Shown here in pieces: positions 47,959-64,000 of a stretch of 64,000 bases of DNA. Source of the stretch: Dehalococcoidia bacterium (GTDB lineage: Bacteria; Chloroflexota; Dehalococcoidia; Lucifugimonadales; QGNO01); NCBI GenBank assembly GCA_965261825.1, contig OZ253484.1:532695-596694 (forward strand). Reading direction: 5' to 3'. The position numbers and the translations under genes were made by a program. Every line of letters starts with the position of its first letter. The stretch's first letter is position 1. The notes below the pieces were generated by a model. That model saw only the letters and a program-made list of their open reading frames with translations. It had not been told where the DNA came from and searched no databases.

Positions 47959-48086
47959 ACGCGGTGGTAGGCAGGATGCCAGGGAGACGCGCCGGTTCGT
48001 TATCCGGTCCGTTATGGGGAATCTGCCCCAATAGCGGTCTCTATGCTAAACTGGTAGGACGGTTGACCTGATGTTGGAGAGTTGGC

Positions 48087-49286
48087 ATGGCTGAACAGCC
48101 TAAAGACCTGATCTACATGGACCACGCCGCCACGTCCAAGATGCGGCCTGAGGTTCTGGAGGCCATGTTGCCGTATTTCATGGAGAGCTACGGCAATCCC
48201 TCTAGCATCTACACCCTGGCTCAAGAAGCGCGCAAGGCCGTGGATGAGTCCAGGGAGACGGTGGCGCGGATTCTGGGTTGCCGTACCAGCGAGGTGATTT
48301 TCACCAGCGGAGGCACGGAGTCCGACAACACGGCGGTCTACGGAGCGGCCATGGCTCTGCAGCCCACCGGCAACCACATCATCACAACCGATATTGAGCA
48401 CCATGCCGTGCTCCACGCCTGCCATTCCCTGGAAAACCTGGGATACGACGTGACGTATCTGCCCGTGGATAGGTACGGTATGGTCGACCTGGAGGATCTG
48501 AACAAGGCCATCACGGATCGTACCATCCTGGTCAGCATGATGTATGCCAACAACGAGATAGGCACCGTCCTACCCGTGGCGGAGGCGGCAAAGCTGGTCA
48601 AAGAGCGTGCCGCCGCCATGGAGCGCAGCATCACGTTCCACACGGACGCCGTTCAAGCCGCGGGATACCTGGATATAGACGTGAAACGGCTTGGAGTGGA
48701 CATGCTGAGCCTTTCCGCGCATAAGTTTCACGGGCCCAAGGGCGTGGGCATCCTCTATGTAAAACGGGGTACTCCTTTCACGCCGCAGCACGTGGGCGGC
48801 AGCCAGCAGAGGCAGCGACGCGCCGGCACGGAGAACGTGGCTGGCATCGTCGGCAGCGCCAAGGCACTCCGGCTGGCCGTGGATGAGCAGGAGTGGCTCA
48901 ATCGGCACACCAGGAGCCTGAGGGACAGGCTTCTCCATGGTATCCAGGAGAAGATACCCTCCGTTTTCTTGAACGGTCACCCGGAACGGCGTCTACACAA
49001 CAATATCAACCTCTCATTCGAGCACCTGGAAGGCGAACCGTTGCTGCTGGGACTGGACTTCGCGGGGGTGGCGGCATCTAGTGGAAGCGCCTGCACGTCG
49101 GCATCCCTGGAACCGTCGCACGTTCTTGTCGCCATAGGGTTGACGGCGGAGCTGGCACAGTCCAGCCTGCGGCTGACGCTGGGCCGGGAAAACACCGATC
49201 AAGACGTGGATTACGTTCTGGAAGTTCTGCCTGATCTGGTGCAAAGGCTGAGATCCATGGCATCCATATCGTCAATAACTGCGTAG
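48087..49286 (+). CDS. iscS: Cysteine desulfurase (IscS/NifS class I)
   Basis: [41 protein letters not shown]. Confidence 0.93.
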
Positions 49287-49324
49287 CACTGTTATCATTA
49301 TTCCTAATTCCGAGAGACCACAAG

Positions 49325-49882
49325 ATGACCAACCGAGCACTGACCACGTCTGCACTAGTTATTCTCTTCTCCCTGCTGGCCCTGTCCGCGTGTATTTCGG
49401 GGTCGAGCGCCACGGACTGGGCCTTTGGAGAGGCCCTCACCGTCAGGGTAAAGGAGATGCGCCTTGTGGATGAGGTGGCCTACTCAATAGAAGACAACCA
49501 TTACGTGATAAGGCCTTCCCAAGAAGGCAGAATGATTGCGGCAGCTCACCTGGAGCTGCGCAACCGTCAGGCAAACGTTGTATTCCTCTCCATAGACGCG
49601 CAGTCGGCCAGGCTCAGAGACGCCGAGTTCTTTGACTACAGGCCTCTCAATCCATTCCAGGACAGGAGCGAGGTGGCTGAGGCGCTGCCTTCGGATGGAA
49701 GACTGCTTCCCTTCCTCTGGGGAGACGGCATAGACGCTCCTGCCGTGGATCTGCATGAGACCTGTGACGAGGCAGGCTCTCCCTGCGAGCTGGTGGGATG
49801 GATGTTCTTCGAGGTTCCCAGTGAAATAGAGTACTACCAGTTCATTTGGGAGTCCGCGGATACAATATTCATGCGGTTCTAG
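49325..49882 (+). CDS. Hypothetical lipoprotein (DUF4352-like beta-sandwich suspected)
   Basis: Lipobox LSAC; C-terminal GWMFFEVP. Confidence 0.7.
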   Translation: MTNRALTTSALVILFSLLALSACISGSSATDWAFGEALTVRVKEMRLVDEVAYSIEDNHYVIRPSQEGRMIAAAHLELRNRQANVVFLSIDAQSARLRDAEFFDYRPLNPFQDRSEVAEALPSDGRLLPFLWGDGIDAPAVDLHETCDEAGSPCELVGWMFFEVPSEIEYYQFIWESADTIFMRF

Positions 49883-50080
49883 TAGAGCAGGACGCACCAT
49901 GGCACGGGTGGCAGGGGTGAAACAGTGTGGTGTTGTCGGCGCGGTCTTTGTAGTTGCGGGGCTTATAGCAGTGTCAACCAACCCAGCGGGCGCTGGCATA
50001 TTGCTGTTTGTGGGGGCTGCTAGTCTGGGTGGGGGTCTAGCACCGCCGCTAGTTCAAGCTGCCGCAGGGGCTTCTAGCCC

Positions 50081-50558
50081 TTACCAACGCCATGCACAAG
50101 CCTTGATCGCTATCTGGAGCAACAGCAAAGCTCCCGATAGGTACGCAACCGCTGAAAGCCCCACGTAGGCTCTCGGCTCGTTGCTTACGAGGTAAGAACG
50201 GTGCGTACATGGCCACTAATGCCGCCGCTAGGACGCAGGAGGTTGCAAAGAGGGCGGTCTTGCGCTGGCCATACTGCCATACCACAATAAGGGCGGCGAC
50301 GATGGCAAGCGCGGGGCAGCCAATGAGCACCCACAGTTGAATCTCCGAGACCTCGGCTAGGTAGTTGACAGAGGGGGATACCGCCAGAGCCAGCAACTCC
50401 GCCCCGTTGCGGCTATCGGGCGTCCCTTCAAGCCTTAGCCAGGGCAAGAAGAACGCGCCAACAATCCCCAGCGACGCCGCAAAGCTCAGCAGCCACACTG
50501 GACGGGAGCGCAACCTTAGCGCAACCATCAAGCGCCAGTGCGCGAGCCGCGTTTTCAT
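50081..50558 (-). pseudogene. FLPW-motif membrane protein with apparent +1 frameshift near 50195
   Basis: Three TM segments then polar tail in the track frame; the shifted frame gives LVSNEPRAYVGLSAVAYLSGALLLLQIAIKACAWRW* (fourth TM). Confidence 0.65.
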
Positions 50559-51220
50559 TGACTTGTCCTCGCGGGGTCAAACGGCGATAGGGTGATGCTG
50601 CGTATGTTCTCTGAGGCGGCTTGAAAAGCGGCAAGCTCAGCATTTAGGGCGGCGATCTCGGCTGGCACCTTGTCAAACCCGCTGGCGCCAAAAGAGAACT
50701 CCGAGGCCAGCTCCAGCTTGCGTAAGTCCGTGTCAAGGTCAGCAAGGCGCTCCATGATGCTAAGAGCCTCCGCACGGGTATTATGAGCGCGCTCTTGCCA
50801 TTGCTGGAAGAGGGACAAGTCCAGCCTGTCGCTCATCTCCGCCTGTGCCCGCCTTTCCTCGCTGTTGTAACGCGATGTCAGTGCTTTTTGAGCCGCTAGG
50901 TAGGTCGCCGCCCTGGTCTCGGCGTGGCGGATCGCGGCGTCAAACCTGCTGTACGCAGCTTGGGCGCTGGCATACCGAGGCTGCCATTCTTTGATTAGAG
51001 CAGGTAAGTCGGTTATCTGCCCAACGCCTGCGGCGGCAACAAAGCTTTGGTTATCGGCAAGGGACGCTCCGAGCGCTTCCGTCTGGTGCTTAACCATGAC
51101 AAAGCTCTCATCGGCAAGGCTCGCCTCGGAAGCGGAGAGCTCAACATAACCCGCCCAACCGATACCCACAAGCACAGCAAGCACGGCGGCTTTAGAGGTT
51201 AGGTTAAAGAGCCTTTTCAT
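50555..51220 (-). CDS. Hypothetical membrane-anchored helical/coiled-coil protein (weakly DUF2959-like)
   Basis: N-terminal hydrophobic segment, long Ala-rich amphipathic helices; ATGA overlap with the downstream gene. Confidence 0.7.
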   Translation of the reverse strand: MKRLFNLTSKAAVLAVLVGIGWAGYVELSASEASLADESFVMVKHQTEALGASLADNQSFVAAAGVGQITDLPALIKEWQPRYASAQAAYSRFDAAIRHAETRAATYLAAQKALTSRYNSEERRAQAEMSDRLDLSLFQQWQERAHNTRAEALSIMERLADLDTDLRKLELASEFSFGASGFDKVPAEIAALNAELAAFQAASENIRSITLSPFDPARTSQ

Positions 51221-51313
51221 GCCTCGCAGTATAAAGCGGGCGGCGGAGAGTTGCAAAAATAACGTACCCCCGCTAGGCACGGGTTTCCCCTATAGCAAGG
51301 GTGCGCACCGCAC

Positions 51314-51342
51314 TTGACAGTCACAATGGCTGGTGTTAACTT
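51314..51342 (+). promoter_or_regulatory. Sigma70 promoter of the ilv-leu leader
   Basis: TTGACA-17 nt-TAACTT with extended TG. Confidence 0.7.
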
Positions 51343-51370
51343 TGCAAAGATACTAATAAGTGAATACTCT

Positions 51371-51603
51371 GCTTTGAACGGGAGTAGTAGGAGAGGCTCG
51401 GTCACAGAGAGCCGGCGGCATCTGAAAAGCCGGTGACAAAGAGGCCCTGAACTCGCCCGGGAGCGGTTGGCTTGGGCTGTTATGGCTGGAGCCAACGGGG
51501 TTGCACCGTTATCGCAATCGAGAGCCCTGATATGATGTTGGGGAAGAAGGGTGGTACCGCGGGAACCGTTTCCCGTCCCTTAGTGGGACGGGATTTTTTT
51601 GTT
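51371..51603 (+). ncRNA. T-box riboswitch, Leu (CUC) specifier, transcription-termination type
   Basis: AGTA, AGAGA and CTGA stem I motifs, GAA-CTC-G specifier (51449-51455), CCGTTATC, T-box AAGGGTGGTACCGCG (51547-51561), terminator TCCCGTCCC/GGGACGGGA plus T-tract. Confidence 0.95.
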
Positions 51604-51650
51604 GGCAATCAAAACTGAATCTGAAAGAGCTATACGGAGGTAGAGGAGAA

Positions 51651-53375
51651 ATGAAGCTCACAGGCGCCCAGATGGTTTGTGAGAGCCTTATACGTGAGGG
51701 TGTGGACCTGGTATTTGGGCTTCCAGGCGGCGCGATACTACCCCTCTACCAGACGATGCCTCAGTATCCGCAGATACGCCATATACTGGTGCGCCATGAA
51801 CAGGGAGCAGCCATGGCGGCAGACGGGTATTTCAGGGCGTCTGGCAGGGTAGGGGTTGCCTTTGCCACCTCCGGGCCGGGCGCAACCAACCTGGTCACGG
51901 GCATTGCCTGCGCAAACATGGACTCTTCTGCAATGGTCTGCATCACGGGCCAGGTAGCCCGCGCCGCAATTGGCAAGGACGCTTTCCAAGAAGGCGATAC
52001 CACGGGAGTCACACTGCCCATTACCAAGCACAACTATCTTGTGATGAAGGCGGCGGATATTCCCAAGGTCATTCATGAAGCGTTCTACATAGCAAAGACG
52101 GGCCGGCCAGGCCCTGTGCTGGTGGACATACCCAAGGACGTATTCATAGAGAAAGCCGACTTCGAGTATCCGGAGGAGGTGGACTTACCCGGATACAAAC
52201 CGACTCTAGAGGGCCATTCCAGCCAGATCAAGAAAGCGGTCAAGCTGATCAAGGACGCTCAGCGACCAGTGATACTTGCCGGGCACGGCGTGATCATTTC
52301 CCACGCCTATGAGGAGCTGAGGGAGCTTGCCGAAAAGGCGGAGATTCCCGTCATAACCACGCTGCTCGGCCTGAGTTGCTTCCCGGAGACACACGTGCTC
52401 AGCGTGGGGATGCCCGGTATGCATGGGGTGGCCTACGCAAGCCTGGCCATCGACAGGTCTGACCTGGTGATTTCACTGGGTGCGCGGTTTGACGACCGTG
52501 TTACGGGTCGTGTCAGCGCTTTCGCACCCAAGGCCAAGGTGATCCACGTTGACATAGACCCGGCGGTTATTGGGCAGAACGTGAAGACGCATGTTCCCAT
52601 TGTGGGTGACCTGCGTCGCGTACTCAGGACACTCAACAAGCAGATAGAGCCGGCAACCCGTTCAGAATGGCTGGACGAGATCGAGCAGCTGCGCAGAGAG
52701 CATCCGTCGTTGCGGATGCCCAACAATCCCAAGTTGACCCAGCAGTTCATCCTCAAGCAGCTTTCAGATATCACGCAGGGCAAGGCGATTATAGTTACCG
52801 GAGTGGGGCAGCATCAGATGTGGGCGGCTCAGCTATACACGTTCACGGAACCCAACACCATGATCACATCTGGCGGCGCTGGAGCCATGGGATTCGAAGT
52901 GCCTGCCGCCATGGGTGCTCAGCTTGCCCGGCCCGGCGAGGTGGTCTGGTCGATTGCGGGTGACGGCGGCTTCCAGATGACGATGTCGGAGCTGGCGACC
53001 ATGGTGGAGAACAAAATACCGGTGAAGTTTGCCATAATGAACAATCGGTTCCTGGGTATGGTTAGGCAGTGGCAGCACATGTTCTACAACGATACTTTTT
53101 ACGCCACCGAATACACTGGGAACCCGGATTTTGTGAAGCTGGCCGAGGCGTTCGGGGTGCTGGGCATCAGAGTAACCGAGAACTATCAGGTGGCGGGCGC
53201 CATTGAAGAGGCGATGGCGTATGAAGGCCCGGTTATTGTGGACTTTGTGGTGGATCCGGAAGAGAACGTTTACCCAATGATCCCGCCCGGAGAGAGCGTC
53301 AACGAGCTTATAGAGGCGCCGGAACAGTTTGAGGCCGTGCTGGAGGCAAATCCAGACATGATGCCGCCGTCCTAG
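51651..53375 (+). CDS. ilvB: Acetolactate synthase large subunit
   Basis: FGLPGGAIL, RHEQGA, TSGPGATN, VGQHQMW, GDGGFQMT, GMVRQWQ. Confidence 0.96.
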   Translation: MKLTGAQMVCESLIREGVDLVFGLPGGAILPLYQTMPQYPQIRHILVRHEQGAAMAADGYFRASGRVGVAFATSGPGATNLVTGIACANMDSSAMVCITGQVARAAIGKDAFQEGDTTGVTLPITKHNYLVMKAADIPKVIHEAFYIAKTGRPGPVLVDIPKDVFIEKADFEYPEEVDLPGYKPTLEGHSSQIKKAVKLIKDAQRPVILAGHGVIISHAYEELRELAEKAEIPVITTLLGLSCFPETHVLSVGMPGMHGVAYASLAIDRSDLVISLGARFDDRVTGRVSAFAPKAKVIHVDIDPAVIGQNVKTHVPIVGDLRRVLRTLNKQIEPATRSEWLDEIEQLRREHPSLRMPNNPKLTQQFILKQLSDITQGKAIIVTGVGQHQMWAAQLYTFTEPNTMITSGGAGAMGFEVPAAMGAQLARPGEVVWSIAGDGGFQMTMSELATMVENKIPVKFAIMNNRFLGMVRQWQHMFYNDTFYATEYTGNPDFVKLAEAFGVLGIRVTENYQVAGAIEEAMAYEGPVIVDFVVDPEENVYPMIPPGESVNELIEAPEQFEAVLEANPDMMPPS

Positions 53376-53393
53376 CGATTGGTATAAGAGAAC

Positions 53394-53948
53394 ATGATTA
53401 CAGCGGAAAAGCACTCTCACACCCTTGTGGCTCTGGTTCTAGACAAGCCAGGTGTATTGAACCGCATAGCCAGTATGTTCAGGCGGCGCGGCTACAATAT
53501 CCACAGCTTGGCCGTAGGTCATAGCGAGATACCCAACCTTTCTCGCATGACTTTTGTTGTGGAAGGCGACGATACCACGGTGGAGCAGGTCACCAAGCAA
53601 CTCTACAAGCTGATCGACGTTGTGCGGGTTACCAAACTCTCGGACATGGATTGCGTGTCCCGTGAGATGGCGCTGATCAAAGTGCGCTCCACGGCACAGA
53701 CCCGCAGTGAGATCATCCAAATGGTTGATATTTTTAGGGCGAACATCGTGGATGTTTCCGCGGAGTCCATGATCATTGAAGTGACCGGAGACGAGGACAA
53801 GATAGATTCGCTGTATACGCTGCTCAAACCGTTTGGCGTAAGAGAGATGATGCGGACGGGCCGGGTGGCTATGAACCGCGGGCCGCTTACGTCGCACGGC
53901 CTGGAGAACGGGAGAGTAAAGAGCAAGAACCTGGGCAGTTCAGGGTAA
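53394..53948 (+). CDS. ilvN: Acetolactate synthase small (regulatory) subunit
   Basis: DKPGVLNRI, RRGYNIHSLAVG, EQVTKQLYKLIDV, RTG. Confidence 0.95.
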   Translation: MITAEKHSHTLVALVLDKPGVLNRIASMFRRRGYNIHSLAVGHSEIPNLSRMTFVVEGDDTTVEQVTKQLYKLIDVVRVTKLSDMDCVSREMALIKVRSTAQTRSEIIQMVDIFRANIVDVSAESMIIEVTGDEDKIDSLYTLLKPFGVREMMRTGRVAMNRGPLTSHGLENGRVKSKNLGSSG

Positions 53949-53981
53949 CGGTGAGTCCAAGAGAAACTCAAGGAGCAAAGC

Positions 53982-54980
53982 ATGGCAACGGTCTACTATG
54001 AGAATGACGCCGATCGATCACTGATCCAAGACAAGACAATTGGAGTCATTGGATACGGCAGCCAGGGGCATGCCCACGCTCTGAATCTGAAAGACAGCGG
54101 TCTGAACGTCATTGTAGGCCTTTACGAGGGAAGCGGGAGCTGGTCCAAGGCGGAAGAGGACGGCTTCAACGTTGCCCTCACCTCCCAAGCCGCCAAAGAG
54201 TCGGACATTATAGTCATGCTGCTCCCCGACACCTCCCAAGGCGAGGTCTACAAGCGTGACATAGAGCCAAACCTCAGCGCCGGAAAGAGCATTGCTTTTG
54301 CTCACGGTTTTTCCATCCACTACGAGACGGTAGTTCCGCCCAGCAACGTGGATGTCTGGATGATAGCTCCCAAGGCTCCGGGACATAGAATGCGCGAGGT
54401 ATACAGACAGGGGAACGGGGTGCCTTCCCTGGTAGCGGTGCACCAGGACGCCACCGGCAACGCCAAACAAACGGCGCTGGCCTATGCCTGGGGAGTGGGC
54501 TCGCTCAGGGCGGGTGTACTGAATACCACGTTCAAAGAGGAGACGGAGACCGACCTCTTCGGCGAACAAACCGTTCTGTGCGGCGGCGTTACTTCTTTGG
54601 TCAAGGCGGCGTTTGAGACCATGGTAGAGGCGGGCTATCAACCGGAGTCGGCTTATTTTGAGGTGATGCACGAACTGAAGCTGATAGTTGACCTGCTGTA
54701 TCAGGGCGGTATGGAGTACATGCGTTATTCGGTCAGCGATACGGCAGAGTACGGCGACTACACCCGTGGTCCCCGAATCATAGACGAAGATGTCAAAGTG
54801 AAGATGCAAAAGGTGCTGAGTGAGATACAAGACGGTACCTTTGCCAGGGAGTGGATTGCGGAAAATGACGAGGGCCGTCCCAGATTCAAGCTTCTACGTG
54901 AGGAGAACGCTGGCCACCCTATAGAGAAGGTAGGCAAGGAACTGAGGGGCATGATGCCCTGGCTCAAGAGCACTACGTGA
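53982..54980 (+). CDS. ilvC: Ketol-acid reductoisomerase
   Basis: [42 protein letters not shown]. Confidence 0.97.
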
Positions 54981-55114
54981 TGATTGCCAATCCATCATTT
55001 CAAGATGCGTTGGAGGTACGGCGCGTGGTCCGTTGCGAAGACCGGGTCTTAGCAAGGCTGGGTCTAGCGGACCGCGTTGTCCTGTGACCCTTAGCTTTCC
55101 TCCAATTCCGTACC
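54980..55114 (+). promoter_or_regulatory. Candidate leuA leader: 35-aa uORF (54980-55087) overlapping a long structured RNA
   Basis: TGATG coupling to ilvC; hairpin 55023-55077; competing helices TTGGAGG/CCTCCAA and GGTACGG/CCGTACC. Confidence 0.5.
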
Positions 55115-55156
55115 CGCCGGGCACTATCCCAAATTGTTAACTAGGAGCACCAGACC

Positions 55157-56707
55157 ATGGTAGAGGACAAGGTATATATATTCGATACCACGCTGCGCGA
55201 CGGCGAACAGTCGGCCGGCGCGGCAATGACCGTAGATGAAAAGCTGGAGGTAGCAAGACGGCTGGAAGCAATGGGCGTGGACATAATAGAAGCGGGGTTC
55301 CCTGTAAGCTCCCCCGGTGATTTTGAAGCGGTGAGGGCCGTTGCCAAAGAGATACGCAAGCCCATCATCTGCGCCTTGGCACACGCCAATCCCACCGCCG
55401 TGGATAAAGCGGCGGAAGCTTTGAAGGAAGCCAGGCATCCCCGCATCCACGTTTTCCTCTCCAGCTCTGACATTCACATAATGCATCAGCTTCGCAAAGG
55501 CCGGGAAGAGGTCATGGATATGGCTGTGTCCAACGTGGAACGCGCCAAGAGCTACGTTGATGACGTGGAGTTTTCGCCCATGGACGCCACGCGAACGGAA
55601 CCGGAATACCTCTATACAATGCTGGAAGCCTGTATCAATGCCGGCGCCACTACAATCAACATCCCGGATACCGTGGGCTACACAACACCCTCCGAGTTTA
55701 CCGCGCTGCTGGAGGGCGTAAAGAAAAACGTGCCCAACATAGGCAAAGTGAGGCTAAGCGTCCACTGTCACAATGACTTGGGGATGGCCGTGGCCAACAG
55801 CCTTGCCGCCGTAAAAGCCGGGGTGCGGCAAATAGAGGGATGCATCAACGGCATAGGCGAAAGGGCCGGCAACGCGGCCATAGAAGAAGTGATCATGGCC
55901 CTGCACACCAGGGAGGACCACTACAATGTCAGGCTGGACATAGATACAACCCAGATCCACCGTATCAGCAAGATGGTAAGCGATATCACAGGCTTCTCGG
56001 TGCAACCCAACAAGGCTGTGGTGGGGAGAAACGCCTTCAGACACGCCTCAGGCATCCATCAGGACGGGTTTCTGAAGGAGCGCACCACCTATGAGATAAT
56101 GGACCCGCAGAGCATAGGCTGGCCCAGCAGCGAAGTGGTGCTGGGTAAGCTCAGTGGCCGGCATGGCCTGAAGTCCAGGCTCGACGAGCTGGGATATCAG
56201 CCTACCGACGCTGAGCTAGGCCGTATATTCGAAAGCTTCAAGGAACTGGCCGACAAAAAGCGCGAAGTAACCGATAGAGACCTGGAGTCTCTGATGGCCA
56301 ACCAGCGCCGCAGTTTCGATGACGTATACAAGCTTGACCACATCCAGGTCTCATGCGGCAATCACGAAATACCGACGGCTACCGTACGGCTGATTGGGCC
56401 GGACGGTCAAATCAAGACCGACGCCGCTACCGGCACGGGACCAGTCGACGCCGTGTATCAGGCCATCAACCGGGTTATAAGAGTGCCCAACACACTGACC
56501 GAATTCAGCGTACAAGCCGTTACGGAGGGCATAGACGCCGTAGGCGAAGTGAGCATTCGCATTGAGAGCGGCGATCAAGCGTTTGTTGGACGCGGCGCCG
56601 ACACCGACATCATAGTTGCCAGCGCAAGGGCATACATGAGCGCCCTGAACCGTCTGCTCAGCATGGGAGACGTGGAAAAACCGGCTGAAGCAGTAAGCTT
56701 TGCCTGA
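55157..56707 (+). CDS. leuA: 2-isopropylmalate synthase
   Basis: [46 protein letters not shown] regulatory domain. Confidence 0.97.
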
Positions 56708-56754
56708 TTGACAAGAGACACAGTATGGCTTACAATCCTTCCTATAAGTAAGGA
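56708..56754 (+). promoter_or_regulatory. Internal sigma70 promoter plus palindromic operator of the TA module
   Basis: TTGACA begins at the base after the leuA stop, 17 nt, TACAAT (56731-56736); imperfect palindrome TCCTTCCTATAAGTAAGGA (56736-56754). Confidence 0.8.
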
Positions 56755-56773
56755 ATGGAAGGAGGGTGGCCAA

Positions 56774-57241
56774 ATGCCTGTTGTAACCATGACCAGCAAG
56801 AACCAAATAACGCTGCCCATAGAAATAGCCAGGCAGCTGAACGTTAAGCCCGGAGACAAACTGGTAGTGGAGCTGATTCAAGACCATGTTGTTCTCATGC
56901 CGCAGCCCGGAAGCTGGGCTGACCACGTGGTTGGCAGTGTCAAGGGAGTGTACGGAGCTCGCAAAGAAGATATAGACAGCTATATCAGCGAAGTCCGCTA
57001 CGGTGATGGAGGTGAGGCGGATGAGGAACTGTTGGACGCACTCAACCTGGATGAGGAACTTCGCGCTGTGTATGAGGCCGTTTCCTCTAGAGATATGTCC
57101 AGCTTGAGCCAGATCAGAGAAAGTTCAGGCGTATATCTTGCCCAGCAGAAGCTGGAGAGGCTGGGAGAACTGAAAGCAATTAAAAAGTGGGAGAATCCGG
57201 CACACAAGTCTGAAATTTACTATCGCAGAGCCGGTAAATGA
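56774..57241 (+). CDS. AbrB/MazE-type antitoxin with long C-terminal extension
   Basis: MTSKNQITLPIEIARQLNVKPGDKL; overlaps the PIN gene by ATGA. Confidence 0.88.
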   Translation: MPVVTMTSKNQITLPIEIARQLNVKPGDKLVVELIQDHVVLMPQPGSWADHVVGSVKGVYGARKEDIDSYISEVRYGDGGEADEELLDALNLDEELRAVYEAVSSRDMSSLSQIRESSGVYLAQQKLERLGELKAIKKWENPAHKSEIYYRRAGK

Positions 57242-57708
57242 GGAAGAATCCTCTCATTGGCCCCTGGCTGGAGCAATTGAGGCAATACCGCAGCGTTGCT
57301 TTAGACACCAACCTGATAATCTATGCGCTGGAGGGCGTCGCACCCTATGATGAAATGGCGCTGCATCTGTTCAGATTGATGGAGCGGGGGATACTTCAAG
57401 GGGTTGCATCCACTATTGTCGAGGCTGAGACTCTGGTCAAGCCCATACGCAACCGTGACCGGCTTGCCATAGACAAGATAGAGCTCTTCTTTAGAAACCT
57501 GCCCAACTTGCTCGTGAAACCGGTGGATAGCAGGCTGGCCAGAACAGCGGCAAGGGTTAGAGCCGACAACCGACTGACGCTGTTTGATGCGGTTATAGTG
57601 GCCACTGCCCTTGAGCAGGGGTGCGACGCTATAATAGGCAATGATCGCCTCATGGGACAAAGGGTCACTGGGATACCCTACGTTTACCTTGAAAACTATC
57701 TTATCTAA
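57238..57708 (+). CDS. vapC: PIN-domain VapC toxin
   Basis: [29 protein letters not shown]: four acidic active-site positions intact. Confidence 0.9.
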
Positions 57709-57718
57709 GAGGGAAGAG

Positions 57719-59125
57719 ATGCCCAATACTATGTTCGAGAAGATCTGGAGTGAGCACGTAGTCTACGAGGAGCAGTATAAGCCGGCTATCCTCTACATAG
57801 ACTTGCACCTTATACATGAGGTCACCTCACCACAGGCGTTCGACGGACTCCGCATGAACAACCGTAAGGTCAGGAGAACGGATCTGACGGTTGCAACCGT
57901 GGACCACAACGTGCCCACAACAGACCGCGCACTGCCTGTTGCTGACCTGATTTCCCGCGCTCAGATAGATGCTTTGAACCGGAACGTAGAGGAGTTTGAC
58001 ATAACCTACTACGGGATGGACAGCCCCGGCCAAGGGATTGTCCACGTCATAGGGCCGGAGATGGGATATACCCAGCCTGGCAAGACAATCGTCTGCGGTG
58101 ACAGCCATACCTCTACACATGGCGCATTTGGCGCACTGGCCTTCGGCATAGGCACCTCTGAGGTAGAACATGTGCTGGTGACACAGACCCTGCGCCAGGC
58201 GAAGCCCAAGACCATGGAGATTAGAGTCGATGGGATGCTGCCTTATGGCGTTACCGCCAAGGACATCATCCTGGCTATTATCGGCAAGATAGGTGTTGGG
58301 GGGGCCACCGGCCACGTGGTCGAGTATACCGGTGAAGCCATCCGCGGCCTCTCCATGGAGGGCCGCATGACTGTGTGCAACATGTCTATTGAGGCAGGAG
58401 CAAGGGCAGGTATGGTGGCTCCGGACAGTAAGACGATTGAATACCTCAGGGGAAGGCCGAGAGTTCCCCAAGGGGACGCTTTTGAAGCCACCGCAGAAAA
58501 GTGGCTCTCCCTGAAAACGGACGCGGACGCCGCATACGACACCACGGTTGAGCTGGACGGGTCTACTCTGTCGCCCTTCGTCACCTGGGGGACTAACCCC
58601 GGCATGGTGGTGCCAGTGACGGAGCACGTGCCTGACCCGGGTTCGTTCGAATCCGCGGTGGAGCGTGAGGCGGCGGAGCGCGCCTTGACGTACATGGACC
58701 TGGAACCCGGCAGACCAATGCAGGAGGTACTCCTTGACCGTGTCTTCATAGGCTCCTGTACCAACTCACGCATAGAAGACCTGCGCGCCGCCTCAGAGGT
58801 GGTCAGCGGGCGCAGAGTGAACGACAAGATTAGGGCAATGGTGGTGCCCGGCTCCACGGCGGTGAAAGCTCAGGCGGAAGTGGAAGGTTTGGATAGGATA
58901 TTCGTGGACGCGGGGTTCGAATGGCGTGAATCGGGGTGCTCCATGTGCCTGGGTATGAACCCGGACATCCTGGGCCCCGGTGAGCGTTGCGCCTCCACGT
59001 CCAATCGCAACTTTGAGGGAAGGCAGGGACCGGGCGGGCGCACGCACTTGATGAGCCCGCAGATGGCCGCCGCAGCCGCCATTGCCGGGCATATTGTGGA
59101 CATTAGGGAGTGGAACTTCAGCTAG
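57719..59125 (+). CDS. leuC: 3-isopropylmalate dehydratase large subunit
   Basis: [52 protein letters not shown]. Confidence 0.97.
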
Positions 59126-59134
59126 GAGAAAATC

Positions 59135-59728
59135 GTGGAACCGTATGTAAGAGTGACCGGGAGAGCCGTTCCTTTGGACAGGGCCAACGTCGATACCGAC
59201 CAGATAATCCCAGCCAAGTATTTGAAGCGCATTGAGCGCACGGGATTCGGGGAGTTCCTCTTCGACTCGTGGCGAAAGCTGCCAGACGGGAAAGCCAACC
59301 CCGACTTTATTCTCAATGATCCGAAATACAAAGGCGCCACGGTCCTTATCACCGGGACTAACTTTGGCAGTGGCTCCTCCAGGGAGCATGCTCCCTGGGC
59401 GCTGGAGGACCACGGGTTTCGCACCATCATCAGCTCCGGCTTCGCTGACATCTTTCGCAACAACTGCTATCAGAACGGCATGCTGCCGGTGCAGCTTGCA
59501 CCAGAAGACGTTGACCACTTCATGGGCAAAGCCAAGGAGGGCGCGGACTATGAGATCACCGTCGATCTAGAGCGCTGCTTGGTTACGGGGTCGGATGAGT
59601 ACACGGCGGAGTTCCAGGTGGACCCGTTTCGTCGCGACTGTTTGCTGAAGGGCCTGGACGATATAGGTCTAACCCTGGAGCACGAATCCGCTATTTCTGA
59701 ATACGAGCAGTCACACGCTACAACGTAG
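59135..59728 (+). CDS. leuD: 3-isopropylmalate dehydratase small subunit
   Basis: NVDTDQIIPA, NFGSGSSREHAPWAL, FADIFRNN, GLDDIGLTL. Confidence 0.97.
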   Translation: MEPYVRVTGRAVPLDRANVDTDQIIPAKYLKRIERTGFGEFLFDSWRKLPDGKANPDFILNDPKYKGATVLITGTNFGSGSSREHAPWALEDHGFRTIISSGFADIFRNNCYQNGMLPVQLAPEDVDHFMGKAKEGADYEITVDLERCLVTGSDEYTAEFQVDPFRRDCLLKGLDDIGLTLEHESAISEYEQSHATT

Positions 59729-59802
59729 TCATCCGGCTTGGTTGACTTCCCTGTTTGATAGTGCTAGGAATACATGCATTCGTCCAAGGGGTGCTCTAGC
59801 AG

Positions 59803-60498
59803 ATGAGTGTCAAAGGTCTCATTCAGCAATGGGACATATCTTCAGGTCTTGTCCTCACTGATCCTGAGTCCAAGGAGTTGCTGCATGAGGCTGGAATACA
59901 GGTGGCTGAAACCAAGGCGGTAACGTCCGCCGATGAAGCCGTCTCCGCAGCCAGGGCTTCCGATTTCCCCATCCTGCTCAAGCCCGTATCCAGGCAGCGG
60001 CTCCTGCTTGATGGTGGAGCAGTTGCACCGTTGTCGTCTGAAGCGGACCTGCGCAACGCCTTCCCCACGCTCCTTGCTCAGGCAAAGTCCTGGGACGCCA
60101 GTGTGGAGACGCTCTCTGTAAGCAAGGCGCCGCCTCCAGGCGTAGAGGTGATAGTCCGCCTGCACCGGGACCCGCTGTTTGGACCCGTCCTCTCGTTCGG
60201 CTATGGAAAGATGGCCGTAGAGGTGTGGGAAGACGTGACATACCGCATTGTGCCCCTCACCGGTAAGGACGCCAAGCTGATGATACGCGAGCCAAAAGGA
60301 AGCAGACTTCTGCAGGGATACGGAGCGCTGCCCGCGCCGAGGGCCTCCCTCCTGGAAGAGATGCTTCTAAGAGTCTCCGGCCTTGTCCATGAGAACCCTG
60401 AGATAGAGAACATGGAGCTGTTCCCCGTCTACGCTTATAGAGAACAGGTGCTGGTTGCAGAAGCAAGGGTAGAGTTGAAGGGAAGAGAAGAGGCCTGA
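59803..60498 (+). CDS. ADP-forming acyl-CoA synthetase beta (ATP-grasp) subunit, degenerate motifs
   Basis: LT..ESKELL..AGI, GVEVIV, DPLFGPVLSFG, VEVWEDVTYRIVPL, LLQGY. Confidence 0.8.
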   Translation: MSVKGLIQQWDISSGLVLTDPESKELLHEAGIQVAETKAVTSADEAVSAARASDFPILLKPVSRQRLLLDGGAVAPLSSEADLRNAFPTLLAQAKSWDASVETLSVSKAPPPGVEVIVRLHRDPLFGPVLSFGYGKMAVEVWEDVTYRIVPLTGKDAKLMIREPKGSRLLQGYGALPAPRASLLEEMLLRVSGLVHENPEIENMELFPVYAYREQVLVAEARVELKGREEA

Positions 60499-61901
60499 TG
60501 CACAAGCTGGAACGAATCTTCAGTCCAAGAAGCGTTGCCGTTGTTGGCTCCAAGCAGGTGGATAACCACAACTGGCTGCGCACCGTGCTGCCATTCCAGG
60601 GACCCAAGTACCACATCAACATAGACAAGAATGAATGGCCCAGCGCGGAAGAGCTGGGGTTCCCCAACTATGAAAGGCTGGTGGACGTCCCCGGGGACGT
60701 GGACTTCGTGATCGTATCCGTGCCTGCGCAGGTGGTGCCCTACGTAATCAAGGACTGTATAGCCAAGGGCGTGGCCGGGGTGCATCTCTATACGGCAGGC
60801 TATGGCGAGACAGGGATGGAGGATGGCATTCACCGGGAGCGGGAGTTGCTCCAGCTTGCCCGCGACGGTGATTTGAACGTAGTGGGCCCCAACTGCCTGG
60901 GTGTTTTCAATCCCAAGATAGGCATTGGGGTGAACCTGGGCGGGTACCACGGTGATGCCGGGAACTTTGCCTTCATCTCTCAGAGCGGTTCTCAGTCGGG
61001 AGGATTTGCCAGGGGATGTCTGGCCAACGGGATCAAAGTAAGCAAGCTGGTGAGCATGGGCAACGGCATCATTCTGGACAGCACGGATTACCTGGAGTAC
61101 TTTGCCCAGGACGAGGACACCACGGCAATAGGCATGTACTTGGAGGGGATCAGAGACGGCAGGCGTTTCTACGAGGTCCTGCGCCAAGTATGCGCCAAGA
61201 AGCCCGTCCTTGTCTGGAAAGTTGGAGAAACGGAGGACGCGGCACGGGCCGTAGCATCGCACTCCACCTCCATGACAACGGAATCCGCGGTCTGGGACGC
61301 TATGCTCCGTCAGTGCGGCGCCATCAAGATGGAAAGCGTTGACGAGGTCTTCGAGACGGCCAAGCTCCTCCTGCAACTGCCACCGACCACCGGCGACAGG
61401 CTGGGGCTGATGGCGTTGTCCGGCGGGCATGCCACTGAAATGGCCAATGTCTTCTCCAAGGCTGGCTTCAGAGTGCCTTCGCTACAAGAGAGCTCCTATC
61501 AACGCATACTGGAAAAATTCGACATCGTAGGAAGTACGTATACCAATCCCATCGAGGGTCGCACGCTGAGCAACCCCGATCACCTGAACAACGTCTTGGA
61601 CGTGCTGAACGACGATCCGAACGTGGACATCATCGTCCATGAGGTGCATACCGTAGTCAGGGACGGCGAGCCTTCACTATATAGGGGGCATGGCCCGGAG
61701 TTCCTGGCCGAGTTCCGCAAGCGGGCCAAGAAGCCGTACGTAGCCGCCATCTCTACGTCGCATCCCCACCCGCCCCAGGAGGTAGCGGACGAGTTCTACA
61801 AGAGGCTTACGGATGCGGGCATACCCGCTTTGCACGGGCTGCAGGGCACGGCGGCGGCTTTGCGGAAATTTGTCGACTATTACCAGTACCGAGAGGCTTA
61901 G
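60498..61901 (+). CDS. ADP-forming acyl-CoA synthetase alpha (CoA-binding) subunit
   Basis: FSPRSVAVVG, VGPNCLG, ISQSG, SMGN, YLEG, AVASHS (phospho-His), TNPIE. Confidence 0.88.
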   Translation: MHKLERIFSPRSVAVVGSKQVDNHNWLRTVLPFQGPKYHINIDKNEWPSAEELGFPNYERLVDVPGDVDFVIVSVPAQVVPYVIKDCIAKGVAGVHLYTAGYGETGMEDGIHRERELLQLARDGDLNVVGPNCLGVFNPKIGIGVNLGGYHGDAGNFAFISQSGSQSGGFARGCLANGIKVSKLVSMGNGIILDSTDYLEYFAQDEDTTAIGMYLEGIRDGRRFYEVLRQVCAKKPVLVWKVGETEDAARAVASHSTSMTTESAVWDAMLRQCGAIKMESVDEVFETAKLLLQLPPTTGDRLGLMALSGGHATEMANVFSKAGFRVPSLQESSYQRILEKFDIVGSTYTNPIEGRTLSNPDHLNNVLDVLNDDPNVDIIVHEVHTVVRDGEPSLYRGHGPEFLAEFRKRAKKPYVAAISTSHPHPPQEVADEFYKRLTDAGIPALHGLQGTAAALRKFVDYYQYREA

Positions 61902-61912
61902 CAGAAGGTACA

Positions 61913-63247
61913 GTGGCGGAGTCCTCTTCAGATTTACCGGCTGAAGTAGAAGCAAGACCTGTTGGCCGTGTCCGCGGCTCTGTGCTCGCTTTCGAAGTAG
62001 CCAACTTTCGCATCTTATGGGCCGGCCGCGCCAGCTCCAACATGGCCCGGCAGATGCGTGTTTTCCTCCGTGCCTGGATGGTCTGGGAGATAACGGATTC
62101 TCCCTTCCTGTTGGGCTTTGTTACCTCCTCTCTGGCATGGCCAATGCTCTTCATGCCGTTTCTCGGCGGCTTCCTGGCGGACAAGATCGACCGCCGTCTG
62201 CTGGCTAAAGTCACGGAATCGCTCCTTGTGGTGCTCTGGGCCGCCGTTGCTGTTTTGATAATTTTGGATCTGATCCATTGGTGGCACTTCCTGGTTTCAT
62301 CCGTGCTTAGCGGCGTGATCCAGTCGATTGGACGGCCGAGTCATCAGGCGCTTCTGGGCAGCATTGTGGACAAACGGCGGCTCTCCAACGCCGCGGCATG
62401 GGACAATGTGGCCGACACCTGGCCTAGGGTAGCCGGCCCGGCGGTGGGCGCTATATTGATAGGCGTTATAGGCGCGGGATGGGAGGGGATTCTCTTCGCG
62501 TCAACGGCGGCAATGCAACTGTTCACTGCGGTAACGGTGTTTCTGCTGGACTGGGACCCTCAGGAGCAGCGCGCCAAGCAGCGAGGATCCGGTGAAAGAG
62601 GTTCCTTTGCGGAGGGCTTCAAGTACGTCTGGAACGAGAGGGTGCTCTTTGGCCTGATCAGCATAGGCGTGACCTTCTCCGTGATTGGAGGCGCCGCCGG
62701 GTTCATGCTGCCCATTTTTGCCGATGCAATGCTGGGAGAGGGCGCTTCCGGGTTGGGGTATCTAATGACCGTTTCCACGCTGGGCGGCGCCGTTGGCGCG
62801 CTGACCGTTGTGGCTCTTTCCAATTTTGGGCGCAGGGGTTACCTGTTGCTGGGCGTGGCTGTGCTCAATGCGGGTCTGCTCATAGCTTTTTCCAAGTCGG
62901 ACGTATTCATACTAACCATGGTACTGGTCTTTGGCATGGGACTGGCGCAGGTGATGTTCCGCGCCATGCGCATAGTGGCCATGCAGGTGCTAGCCCCCGA
63001 CGACCTGCGCGGCCGGGTGATGAGTTTCCAGACCAGCATTCAAGGGATGAGCTGGATAGGCGTTCTTCTATTGGGCGGCGTTGCGGAGGTGTTGAAGCGC
63101 CCCGGAGGGCTGGACCTTGGTTTCGTGCAGCTGGGCGGTAGCATAGCCAGTGGAGTAGCCGATACCGTGCTGATAAGCGGTATAGCCTACGGAGTGGTTA
63201 CTCTGATCTTCTTTGCCGTCTTCTCTTCGTTGAGAAGCTTTAGATAG
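61913..63247 (+). CDS. MFS transporter (MFS_3/DUF894-like)
   Basis: NFRILW, GGFLADKIDRR, PSHQA, APDDLRGRVMS. Confidence 0.88.
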   Translation: MAESSSDLPAEVEARPVGRVRGSVLAFEVANFRILWAGRASSNMARQMRVFLRAWMVWEITDSPFLLGFVTSSLAWPMLFMPFLGGFLADKIDRRLLAKVTESLLVVLWAAVAVLIILDLIHWWHFLVSSVLSGVIQSIGRPSHQALLGSIVDKRRLSNAAAWDNVADTWPRVAGPAVGAILIGVIGAGWEGILFASTAAMQLFTAVTVFLLDWDPQEQRAKQRGSGERGSFAEGFKYVWNERVLFGLISIGVTFSVIGGAAGFMLPIFADAMLGEGASGLGYLMTVSTLGGAVGALTVVALSNFGRRGYLLLGVAVLNAGLLIAFSKSDVFILTMVLVFGMGLAQVMFRAMRIVAMQVLAPDDLRGRVMSFQTSIQGMSWIGVLLLGGVAEVLKRPGGLDLGFVQLGGSIASGVADTVLISGIAYGVVTLIFFAVFSSLRSFR

Positions 63248-63292
63248 CCCTCTGCCCTTGCTTTGCTTGTAAGCTTTTCCTACCATTCCACA

Positions 63293-64000
63293 ATGAACGC
63301 CAAATTCGAGCTTCATACGGTTGACGGCGCCGCTCGCGCCGGAGTTTTGCGTACGCCGCACGGCCCCGTGCCGACCCCGGTGTTCATGCCGGTGGCCACT
63401 CAAGGCTCGGTTAAAACGGTGACCCCCCAGGAGCTGCGTTGCCTGGGTGCCGCTTTACTCTTGGGCAATACCTACCACCTGTATCTTCATGGCATTGAAA
63501 CCGTGCGCGACCTGGGAGGGTTGAGCCAGTTCATGGGCTGGAACGGCCCTACGCTCACGGATAGCGGCGGGTTCCAAGCTTACAGCATAAGCGGCCGCGC
63601 CAAGGTCACCGACGACGGAATTGAGTTCCGATCACATATTGACGGCTCACGTCACCTGTTCACCCCCAGGCAGGTCATCGACTATCAAGAATGCCTGGGG
63701 GCGGACATAATCATGAGCTTGGACCAGTGTTTGGCCTATACCAATGACAAGGATGCGGTGCAGGATGCCATGGAGCGTACCCACCGCTGGGCGGAGATAT
63801 GCCGTGAGGCGCATTCCAGGGATGACCAGGCGCTCTTTGGAATTGTGCAGGGGGGGATGTTCGAGGATCTGAGAGAGGAGTCGGCCTCTTACCTCAAAGG
63901 ACTGGATTTTTCGGGATATGCCATCGGCGGCCTGAGCGTGGGTGAGCCCAAGTCGATCATGTACCCGCTCGTGGAGCATACTGCCGGGCTGCTGCCGGAG
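63293..64000 (+). CDS. tgt: tRNA-guanine transglycosylase, 5' part (runs off the window; not in ORF track)
   Basis: ARAGVLRTPHGPVPTPVFMPVATQGSVK, GNTYHL, TDSGGFQ, FGIVQGG, YAIGGLSVGE. Confidence 0.95.
   Translation, partial: MNAKFELHTVDGAARAGVLRTPHGPVPTPVFMPVATQGSVKTVTPQELRCLGAALLLGNTYHLYLHGIETVRDLGGLSQFMGWNGPTLTDSGGFQAYSISGRAKVTDDGIEFRSHIDGSRHLFTPRQVIDYQECLGADIIMSLDQCLAYTNDKDAVQDAMERTHRWAEICREAHSRDDQALFGIVQGGMFEDLREESASYLKGLDFSGYAIGGLSVGEPKSIMYPLVEHTAGLLPE

Follow-up and report, generated by a model that had tools for sequence, protein, structure and literature searches.

How is leuA controlled in an operon where 176 nucleotides (nt) separate it from ilvC? The question is raised by a 64,000-nt stretch of contig OZ253484.1 from a Dehalococcoidia bacterium (the window). 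A sequence-only reading of this stretch had proposed that the ilvC-leuA spacer holds a ribosome-mediated leader, built of an upstream open reading frame (uORF) that lies over a folded RNA. The element exists: it is conserved, coding, structured and linked to leuA and, once, to leuS, and the complementarity between its tail and the ribosome-binding site (RBS) downstream is lineage-specific. We are confident that it is a genuine conserved cis-regulatory leader (uORF plus hairpin) of leuA, found in one order of Dehalococcoidia. As to how it works, we see an even chance that the Shine-Dalgarno (SD) sequence of leuA is freed by a ribosome that dwells on the terminal Leu codon, that is, that the leader is a translational attenuator. 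The features on which the argument turns are the following.

54980..55087, + strand: uORF of 35 codons plus stop (ATG 54980-54982, TGA 55085-55087)
55005..55091, + strand: 87-nt conserved core, basis of covariance model R1 (93.1 bits, E 5.6e-27)
55012..55016, + strand: SD-like GGAGG within the uORF (Glu-Val codons); GGAGG in 57/99 copies, AGAGG or GGAGA in 26 more
55023..55077, + strand: conserved 23-base-pair (bp) hairpin, entirely within the uORF (arms 55023-34/55066-77 and 55039-50/55054-65)
55078..55095, + strand: uORF tail and first bases past the stop (UGUCCUGUGACCCUUAGC), pyrimidine-rich, anti-SD-like, putative partner of the leuA RBS
55082..55084, + strand: invariant terminal Leu codon, CTG in the window, with TGA directly after it (model columns 78-80)
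55143-55147 and 55157-55159, + strand: leuA SD AGGAG and leuA ATG

In the window the uORF begins on the end of ilvC. The ilvC stop and the uORF ATG share a base (TGATG), the listing of open reading frames (ORFs) opens the same frame at GTG 54977, and the peptide holds 5 Leu, 6 Val and 1 Ile among its 35 residues. Within the genus the frame is intact in 9/9 relatives, with indels only 3' of the stop; in the alignment of ten genus sequences positions 55008-55087 are almost invariant, while codons 1-9 of the uORF vary without indels. Across relatives the leader uORF is about 25-36 codons long. The set aligned over the order comprises 99 copies, and its 98 distinct rows were used for the counts of frame and of covariation. 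An in-frame ATG lying no more than 20 codons 5' of the conserved Glu codon, with no stop between, is present in 91 of the 98 distinct copies, and by the same criterion the other two frames give 10/98 and 0/98. The commonest position of this ATG is four codons 5' of the Glu codon (47/98 copies). The core measures 87 nt in 94/99 copies. Four true length variants of 96, 81, 90 and 123 nt (+9, -6, +3 and +36) all differ from it by multiples of three, and one copy of 86 nt is shortened by a contig end and is not a length variant.

The terminal Leu codon is CTN in 99/99 copies (58 CTT, 36 CTG, 4 CTC and one CTN with a masked base). It lies in an unpaired stretch, its variation is confined to the third base, and it is the sole invariant column in the alignment of 46 uORF peptides. 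The stop follows it directly in 33/99 copies and one codon later in 28/99 (61/99 together). Taken jointly, the bias for an in-frame ATG, the indels in multiples of three and a Leu codon that is fixed but for its third base indicate, at the level of sequence, that the uORF is translated. A peptide consensus, MxxxExxxVVRRxGRVLAGLGxADCVxL, is recognisable across families. None of the 46 uORF peptides matches NCBIfam, and the Pfam search gave two stray sub-threshold matches only.

Two copies look damaged as ORFs. The copy of G018 (L020:2073-2159) has an in-frame TAG where the core begins, with no canonical start after it, and in the L178 copy a stop stands four codons ahead of the fixed CTN codon; both retain the RNA core.

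The distribution of the element was followed at several depths. A 901-nt query across the junction found matches in 37 of 41 related genomes, and the 9/9 genus genomes matched over its full length at 91-94% identity. Model R1 found matches in 89/151 genomes of the order, in 66/98 of the high-quality genomes and in 48/88 genera, with E values from 1e-7 to 1e-26 and about one copy per genome. The conservation of the uORF and its covariation among relatives, which the sequence-only reading had left to be looked for, are both borne out. The 2.5-Mb source genome has no second copy of the spacer (the next best match covers 15 nt at E 1.3), and a multicopy repeat scattered over unrelated loci is rejected on this single copy and on the count of about one per genome elsewhere. 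Beyond the order, R1 gave three weak matches in 150 genomes of the class and three in 150 of the phylum. The weak matches, these together with a second match in G143, are all away from leuA, ilv and leuS genes, and by eye several seem to fall within coding sequence; given their weak score and misplaced location, the matches outside the order were rejected as chance. In other families of the order the spacers range from 33 to 1339 nt, and many contain, immediately 5' of leuA, a recognisable homologue of the core. The spread is patchy: the nearest other genera of the family (L018 in G010; L022/L030 in G011 and G012) and G039 (L017) are without the element and have spacers of 75-116 nt.

Inside the frame lies the hairpin. 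Folding of 55020-55081 gave -38.2 kcal/mol, where shuffles average -23.8 (z -4.70; 0/200 shuffles equal it), and the complete spacer, folded as 191 nt, is of ordinary stability (z -1.17). RNAalifold on 16 diverse gapless copies (87 columns) returned the same hairpin, with compensatory changes at 15/23 pairs, and the consensus arms are exactly those that had been drawn from the single sequence. Over the 98 distinct rows, 91.3% of stem cells are paired versus 34-47% when partners are slid by 1-3 columns. Compensatory, two-sided changes occur at 18/23 stem pairs, and 0/500 shuffles attain any of the five measures used. The covariation is accounted for by a simple 23-bp hairpin.

Coding and pairing share the same bases, and at some points they conflict. 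At model columns 23/69 the first Val codon of the stem is GUG or GUA, a synonymous change, which is matched on the opposite side by CGC, UGC or UAC (Arg, Cys or Tyr). Moreover, the apical third of the peptide is wholly replaced in some families while the stem pairing is kept (e.g. RRDGLAPTGSGP and RYTPQRREGDGA). Consequently, pairing outranks the amino acid where the two compete. Val makes up 18% of the core peptide, with no runs, and since most Val codons sit in the stem, RNA pairing alone can account for them.

Further constraints act on single nucleotides, as counted in 58 representatives of less than 85% identity. The stem sequence is GUAGUYCGCC...GGCGGACURCG, with many columns below 0.5 bit of entropy, and in the internal and apical loops the only conserved unpaired nucleotides are the G-G-C of the apex. 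Upstream of the stem, R-G-A-G-G occupies model columns 8-12 (window 55011-16), and the conserved Glu codon ends in G in 54/58, which points to a nucleotide-level constraint on GGAGG. At the other end, the C of column 77, a third codon position, is fixed in 52/58 and makes up a CCU together with C78 and U79, both invariant. An internal start served by GGAGG was rejected, the codon 8 nt downstream being GTA in 51/58 representatives. A programmed frameshift, whether by an SD-like motif with a hairpin or by CUU-UGA, was dropped as no conserved slippery site is present at model columns 13-18.

The element belongs to leuA, not to ilvC. leuA lies downstream in 97/99 aligned copies, 95 of them by tblastn at a median distance of ~65 nt; the leuA of L136 was counted via its ORF and NCBIfam, and that of L024, ~50 nt downstream, by coordinates. 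The L191 copy ends at a contig edge. In G029 and G023 leuA is found apart from ilvC and the element still stands directly upstream of leuA. In G129 a second, diverged copy (MISSSEVSSVVRSEGGVLALLRWADCVVL; L176:705-794 (-), L211:2200-2286 (-)) lies ~135 nt upstream of leuS, the identity of which rests on TIGR00396 (E 7.5e-76 on 206 N-terminal residues). In this copy a CCUCCUC directly after the stop pairs with GAGGAGA of leuS in the minimum free energy (MFE) fold.

Some loci carry additional genes around the leader. In several families (loci L025, L026 and L029), with ilvC-leuA spacers of 1122, 1339 and 726 nt, extra small genes are inserted and the leader stays adjoining leuA; by eye, one of the genes between ilvC and the leader is like a Mrr-type restriction-enzyme domain and others are like small DUF-like proteins. 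In G135 (L136:1573-3087) the leuA frame is open for ~110 codons 5' of the conserved LeuA start and a 55-residue leader uORF overlaps it, so that this leuA may have an N-terminal extension or a true start further downstream.

A connection between the uORF and leuA is suggested by folding from the tail to the leuA start, which predicts in many families a long-range helix between the uORF end with ~10 nt past the stop and the leuA SD region. Its extensions are lineage-specific, as in UGUCCUUUGGUC with GACUAAAGGAGCA or ..UAGCCC.. with ..GGGCUA... An alignment-free duplex test was made on 53 representatives, taking as tail the 20 nt from column 74 and as RBS 29 nt, each tail being paired with the RBS of its own and of other lineages. 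Cognate duplexes averaged -13.7 kcal/mol versus -10.7 for non-cognate ones (permutation p ~2e-4, n=53). Seven other pairs of regions showed in the same test no cognate advantage at p <0.03, among them the hairpin arms (3' arm with spacer, p 0.30; 5' arm with spacer, 0.18; 5' arm with RBS, 0.17; 3' arm with RBS, 0.035). In the full-leader ensemble at least two pairs are expected between the tail and the SD window in 36/87 leaders, and a ribosome footprint that covers either the terminal Leu codon or the stop raised predicted RBS accessibility by about 0.05 (39-40 up and 14-15 down, of 87).

The GGAGG of the uORF could be imagined as a decoy, an anti-anti-SD acting on the tail. Such pairing is predicted in some single folds (18/87 leaders, and also the leuS copy), and the model is unsupported over the order: for the 5' flank that contains GGAGG against the tail, cognate duplexes are weaker than non-cognate ones (-8.6 versus -9.8 kcal/mol, p 0.9998).

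Terminators do not accompany the leader. Neither a sigma-70-like promoter nor an intrinsic terminator was detected in 54700-55300 of the window (0 terminator-like sites), and order-wide only 2/91 spacers are terminator-like. A classical 1:2 / 2:3 / 3:4 attenuator was rejected, given this lack of terminators, arms without lineage-specific complementarity and modelled stalls on the 5' arm or the apical Leu codon without effect. Since no terminator is found and a conserved coding uORF is tied to leuA, a ribosome-mediated leader acting at the level of translation is the best reading. We hypothesize that, without a ribosome, the uORF tail and a few bases past the stop would pair with the leuA RBS and translation would be held down, and that each ribosome reaching the end of the uORF would melt this helix. 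With Leu-tRNA scarce, the ribosome would wait on the terminal CUN codon, the SD would be exposed for longer and leuA translation would go up. This would amount to erm/cat-type translational attenuation in which charged tRNA-Leu is the signal. We give even odds to such a stall and its consequence for leuA.

Several observations weigh against this reading. The stop lies at least two codons past the terminal Leu codon in 35/99 copies, and up to 32 codons past it. UUR occurs at that position in 0/99 copies, and the invariance of the codon could stem solely from the CCU of the anti-SD and not from leucine. Leu accounts for 12% of the core peptide (mean 3.2, dispersed), with no runs and a single fixed position. 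A modelled footprint on the Val codons of the 5' arm or on the apical Leu codon leaves predicted RBS accessibility unchanged. In the window and its genus the pairing of tail and SD is weak: the duplex is predicted at -8.9 kcal/mol, the folded spacer (-11.8 kcal/mol) shows an interrupted helix with 55136-55155, the full-length ensemble has 0.00 expected tail:SD pairs, and the leuA SD pairs diffusely with other partners, partly with the 3' end of ilvC. The link to leuS comes from a single genome (1/30 leuS loci scanned in the order). Related genomes are not independent, so that the p-values are optimistic. Finally, stalling leaves the most conserved parts of the element, the 23-bp hairpin and GGAGG, without explanation.

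Some of these points fit a leucine-independent translational coupling, in which translation of the uORF would open the RBS mask and set a fixed ilvC:leuA ratio with no leucine sensing, TGATG relaying ilvC ribosomes in the genus. The complementarity of tail and RBS fits it equally well; the stop/start overlap with ilvC in the window and the modest Leu content agree with it, and, with UUR absent from all 99 copies, the fixed CU may be an anti-SD only. We nevertheless consider such coupling rather unlikely, as the element tracks leuA and not ilvC, being kept where leuA is alone or genes intervene, and was recruited once to a second leucine-specific gene, leuS; besides, a mere coupling device needs neither a frame of conserved length nor a conserved hairpin. 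Unlikely too is a Rho-dependent, tna-like attenuation, where a ribosome stalled at the uORF end would block Rho on the C-rich spacer, quick release would lead to termination before leuA, and the hairpin would be a pause site for RNA polymerase. The source genome encodes rho (598 bits, cut-off 509), intrinsic terminators were not found in the regions given above and the fixed Leu codon adjoins the stop. Moreover, C exceeds G in 67/90 spacers between uORF stop and SD (mean C 0.32 and G 0.24; in the window C 0.39 and G 0.13), with G exceeding C in the flanks. This C-richness is, however, equally expected of a pyrimidine strand that pairs with a purine-rich RBS, the spacers have a median length of just 53 nt when the SD region is not counted, and the Rho model does not foresee a cognate complementarity of tail and RBS.

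The hairpin left over by stalling could instead be the binding site of a trans-acting factor (protein, RNA or small ligand), with uORF translation only modulating access. In favour of this, the stem sequence is conserved far more than pairing demands, and for the actinobacterial LEU element its authors argue for a protein factor (PMC1262725). Yet the loops have no conserved unpaired nucleotides except the apical G-G-C, and the double constraint of coding and pairing may explain part of the stem conservation; we regard a factor as quite unlikely. Equally doubtful, in our view, is the related idea that hairpin and GGAGG form the sensor of leucine status (through a protein, uncharged tRNA-Leu or leucine) and that the uORF ribosome merely resets it. 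If true, it would be a new class of leucine riboregulator, joining the sensing of a ligand or factor to translation. Differential processing is known for the ilv-leu transcript of B. subtilis, and a very stable hairpin 40 nt past the ilvC stop in the window could likewise act in mRNA stability or processing, the ilvBNC and leuA segments then decaying at different rates and the frame being incidental. We find this very improbable: the frame, the ATG, the indels in multiples of three and the fixed Leu codon are not incidental, and the element follows leuA, not ilvC. Least credible of all is a functional micro-protein of ~30 amino acids acting on LeuA or on leucine metabolism. The recognisable peptide consensus would suit it, but the middle of the peptide is freely replaced while the stem pairs, the RNA wins at columns 23/69, and one peptide column only is invariant, with no family match.

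Translational attenuation at the terminal Leu codon, as preferred here, differs in its parts from what had been drawn from the window alone. Some features of the window are the genus's own.

55099..55105, + strand: CCTCCAA, partner of TTGGAGG (55010-16) in the centroid fold; CCTCC retained in 7/10 genus genomes
55110..55124, + strand: small local hairpin (GUACCCGCCGGGCAC) seen in the genus alignment, with one A.C mismatch in the source genome

These traits of the genus are the TGATG overlap with ilvC, CCUCC at 55099-55103 and the local hairpin at 55110-55124. Most genus genomes have the local hairpin as GTGCCCGCCGGGCAC, and G002 has GCGCCC..GGGCGC, changed on both sides (by eye). The pairing of GGTACGG (55015-21) with CCGTACC (55108-114) appears in the MFE fold and is perfect in the source genome only. 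A genus-level consensus fold of 55078-55162 had 12 pairs and no covariation and was not used.

What the sequence-only reading observed is borne out; its interpretation is supported in part. Its uORF with the ATG over the ilvC stop, the composition of the peptide and the leuA SD AGGAG at 55143-55147 are all in the sequence. Its two competing 7-bp helices are both found, one in the centroid and one in the MFE fold, but they are specific to the genus or the genome and have no order-wide cognate support. The coupling to ilvC through TGATG is confined to this genus; outside it the uORF starts at an ATG of its own and stays with leuA apart from ilvC. Of the supposed richness in Leu and Val there remains one Leu codon fixed in every copy, the overall content being modest and without runs. 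The idea of a ribosome-mediated translational attenuator is retained for a conserved, translated-looking uORF that is tied to leuA and lacks a terminator, although not through the helices proposed for it.

Leader-peptide control of amino-acid genes is textbook knowledge in proteobacteria and is known in some Firmicutes and Actinobacteria. Our full-text literature search found no leader-peptide control described for Chloroflexota, with one relevant match, PMC1262725. This work describes the LEU element of actinobacterial leuA, in which a uORF carries consecutive Leu codons proposed to pair with the SD of leuA, accompanied by a pseudoknot; the authors were doubtful of classical attenuation and proposed that a protein factor is involved (Seliverstov et al. 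2005, PMC1262725). In both elements leuA is directly preceded by a uORF whose Leu codon(s) would double as an anti-SD, and neither has a terminator. The LEU element differs in belonging to Actinobacteria and in its Leu run and its pseudoknot or alternative hairpin, whereas the Dehalococcoidia leader combines a single fixed CUN at the uORF end with a 23-bp hairpin enclosed in the ORF and with an internal GGAGG, and its range is one order. With no match in Rfam, Pfam, NCBIfam or the literature searched, the leader is most likely undescribed, as had been supposed, and its build not reported before.

Among better known systems are the ermC and cat leaders. In these, a short leader ORF precedes the gene, the SD is held by leader sequence, a stalled ribosome frees it and no terminator is needed; the stall depends on an antibiotic and the nascent peptide. 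The element described here shares the short leader ORF; masking of the SD by leader sequence is predicted order-wide and not evident in the genus. It departs from them in that the presumed stall would come from scarce Leu-tRNA at the last codon(s), and in the large extra hairpin upstream. With leuL (Leu_leader, RF00512) it has in common a short leader peptide before leucine genes and, as presumed signal, the speed of the ribosome at Leu codons; unlike leuL, it has no Leu run, no terminator/antiterminator and no Rfam match. Its output is probably translation initiation and not transcription termination as in leuL. The T-box that heads the same operon would also report tRNA-Leu charging in this pathway, and a T-box binds the tRNA directly. 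In contrast, the leader has no T-box match, and the use of several synonymous codons at its Leu positions favours reading by ribosomes.

With the leader, a defined regulatory RNA and peptide linked to leucine becomes available, in some 100 natural variants, for an order of Dehalococcoidia that is uncultured and widespread in the environment. The leader is unusual in build, with one fixed Leu codon at the frame end within an anti-SD-like tail, a conserved hairpin that would be translated through and no terminator. It could serve as a compact natural case of amino-acid-sensing translational attenuation, amenable to a heterologous reporter. For annotation, the covariance model flags a small gene overlooked by gene callers.

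The operon around the leader is headed by a T-box, as the sequence-only reading had it, and is arranged as follows.

51365..51583, + strand: T-box leader (Rfam RF00230, 108.1 bits, gathering score 93, E 1.5e-23)
51651-53375: ilvB
53394-53948: ilvN
53982..54980, + strand: ilvC, ketol-acid reductoisomerase (NF004017, 550 bits), TGA stop 54978-54980
55157-56707: leuA (NF002086, 780 bits)
57641-59125: leuC
59135-59728: leuD

The gene order is thus T-box, ilvB, ilvN, ilvC, the 176-nt spacer holding the uORF, leuA, two small ORFs, leuC and leuD. A covariance-model scan of 48000-64000 (Rfam 15, E up to 1) returned only the T-box and a weak DUF805b, both near 51400; the same scan gave in 54980-55156 no match to T-box, Leu_leader or any other leader model. 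Judged by where it falls in the Rfam alignment, the specifier of the T-box appears to be CUC (Leu). Given a CUC specifier, T-box and leader peptide would act in series on leuA of the source genome, two controls within one operon that both depend on tRNA-Leu.

Transcripts of a relative ~94% identical to the window may be represented in public data. Two metatranscriptomic runs from one study yielded one contig each that spans the end of ilvC, the entire uORF and the first 320 nt of leuA, and the remaining two runs yielded conserved coding parts only. The bridging contigs are compatible with co-transcription of ilvC, uORF and leuA; such contigs carry no ends, strand or level, and DNA carry-over in an RNA library is possible.

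Between leuA and leuC (56708-57708) lie an ORF of 177 amino acids with an AbrB/MazE-like domain (TIGR01439, E 1.9e-9) and a second ORF of 156 amino acids without a family match, which overlaps the former by 4 nt. The pair looks like a toxin-antitoxin-like insertion within the leu operon.

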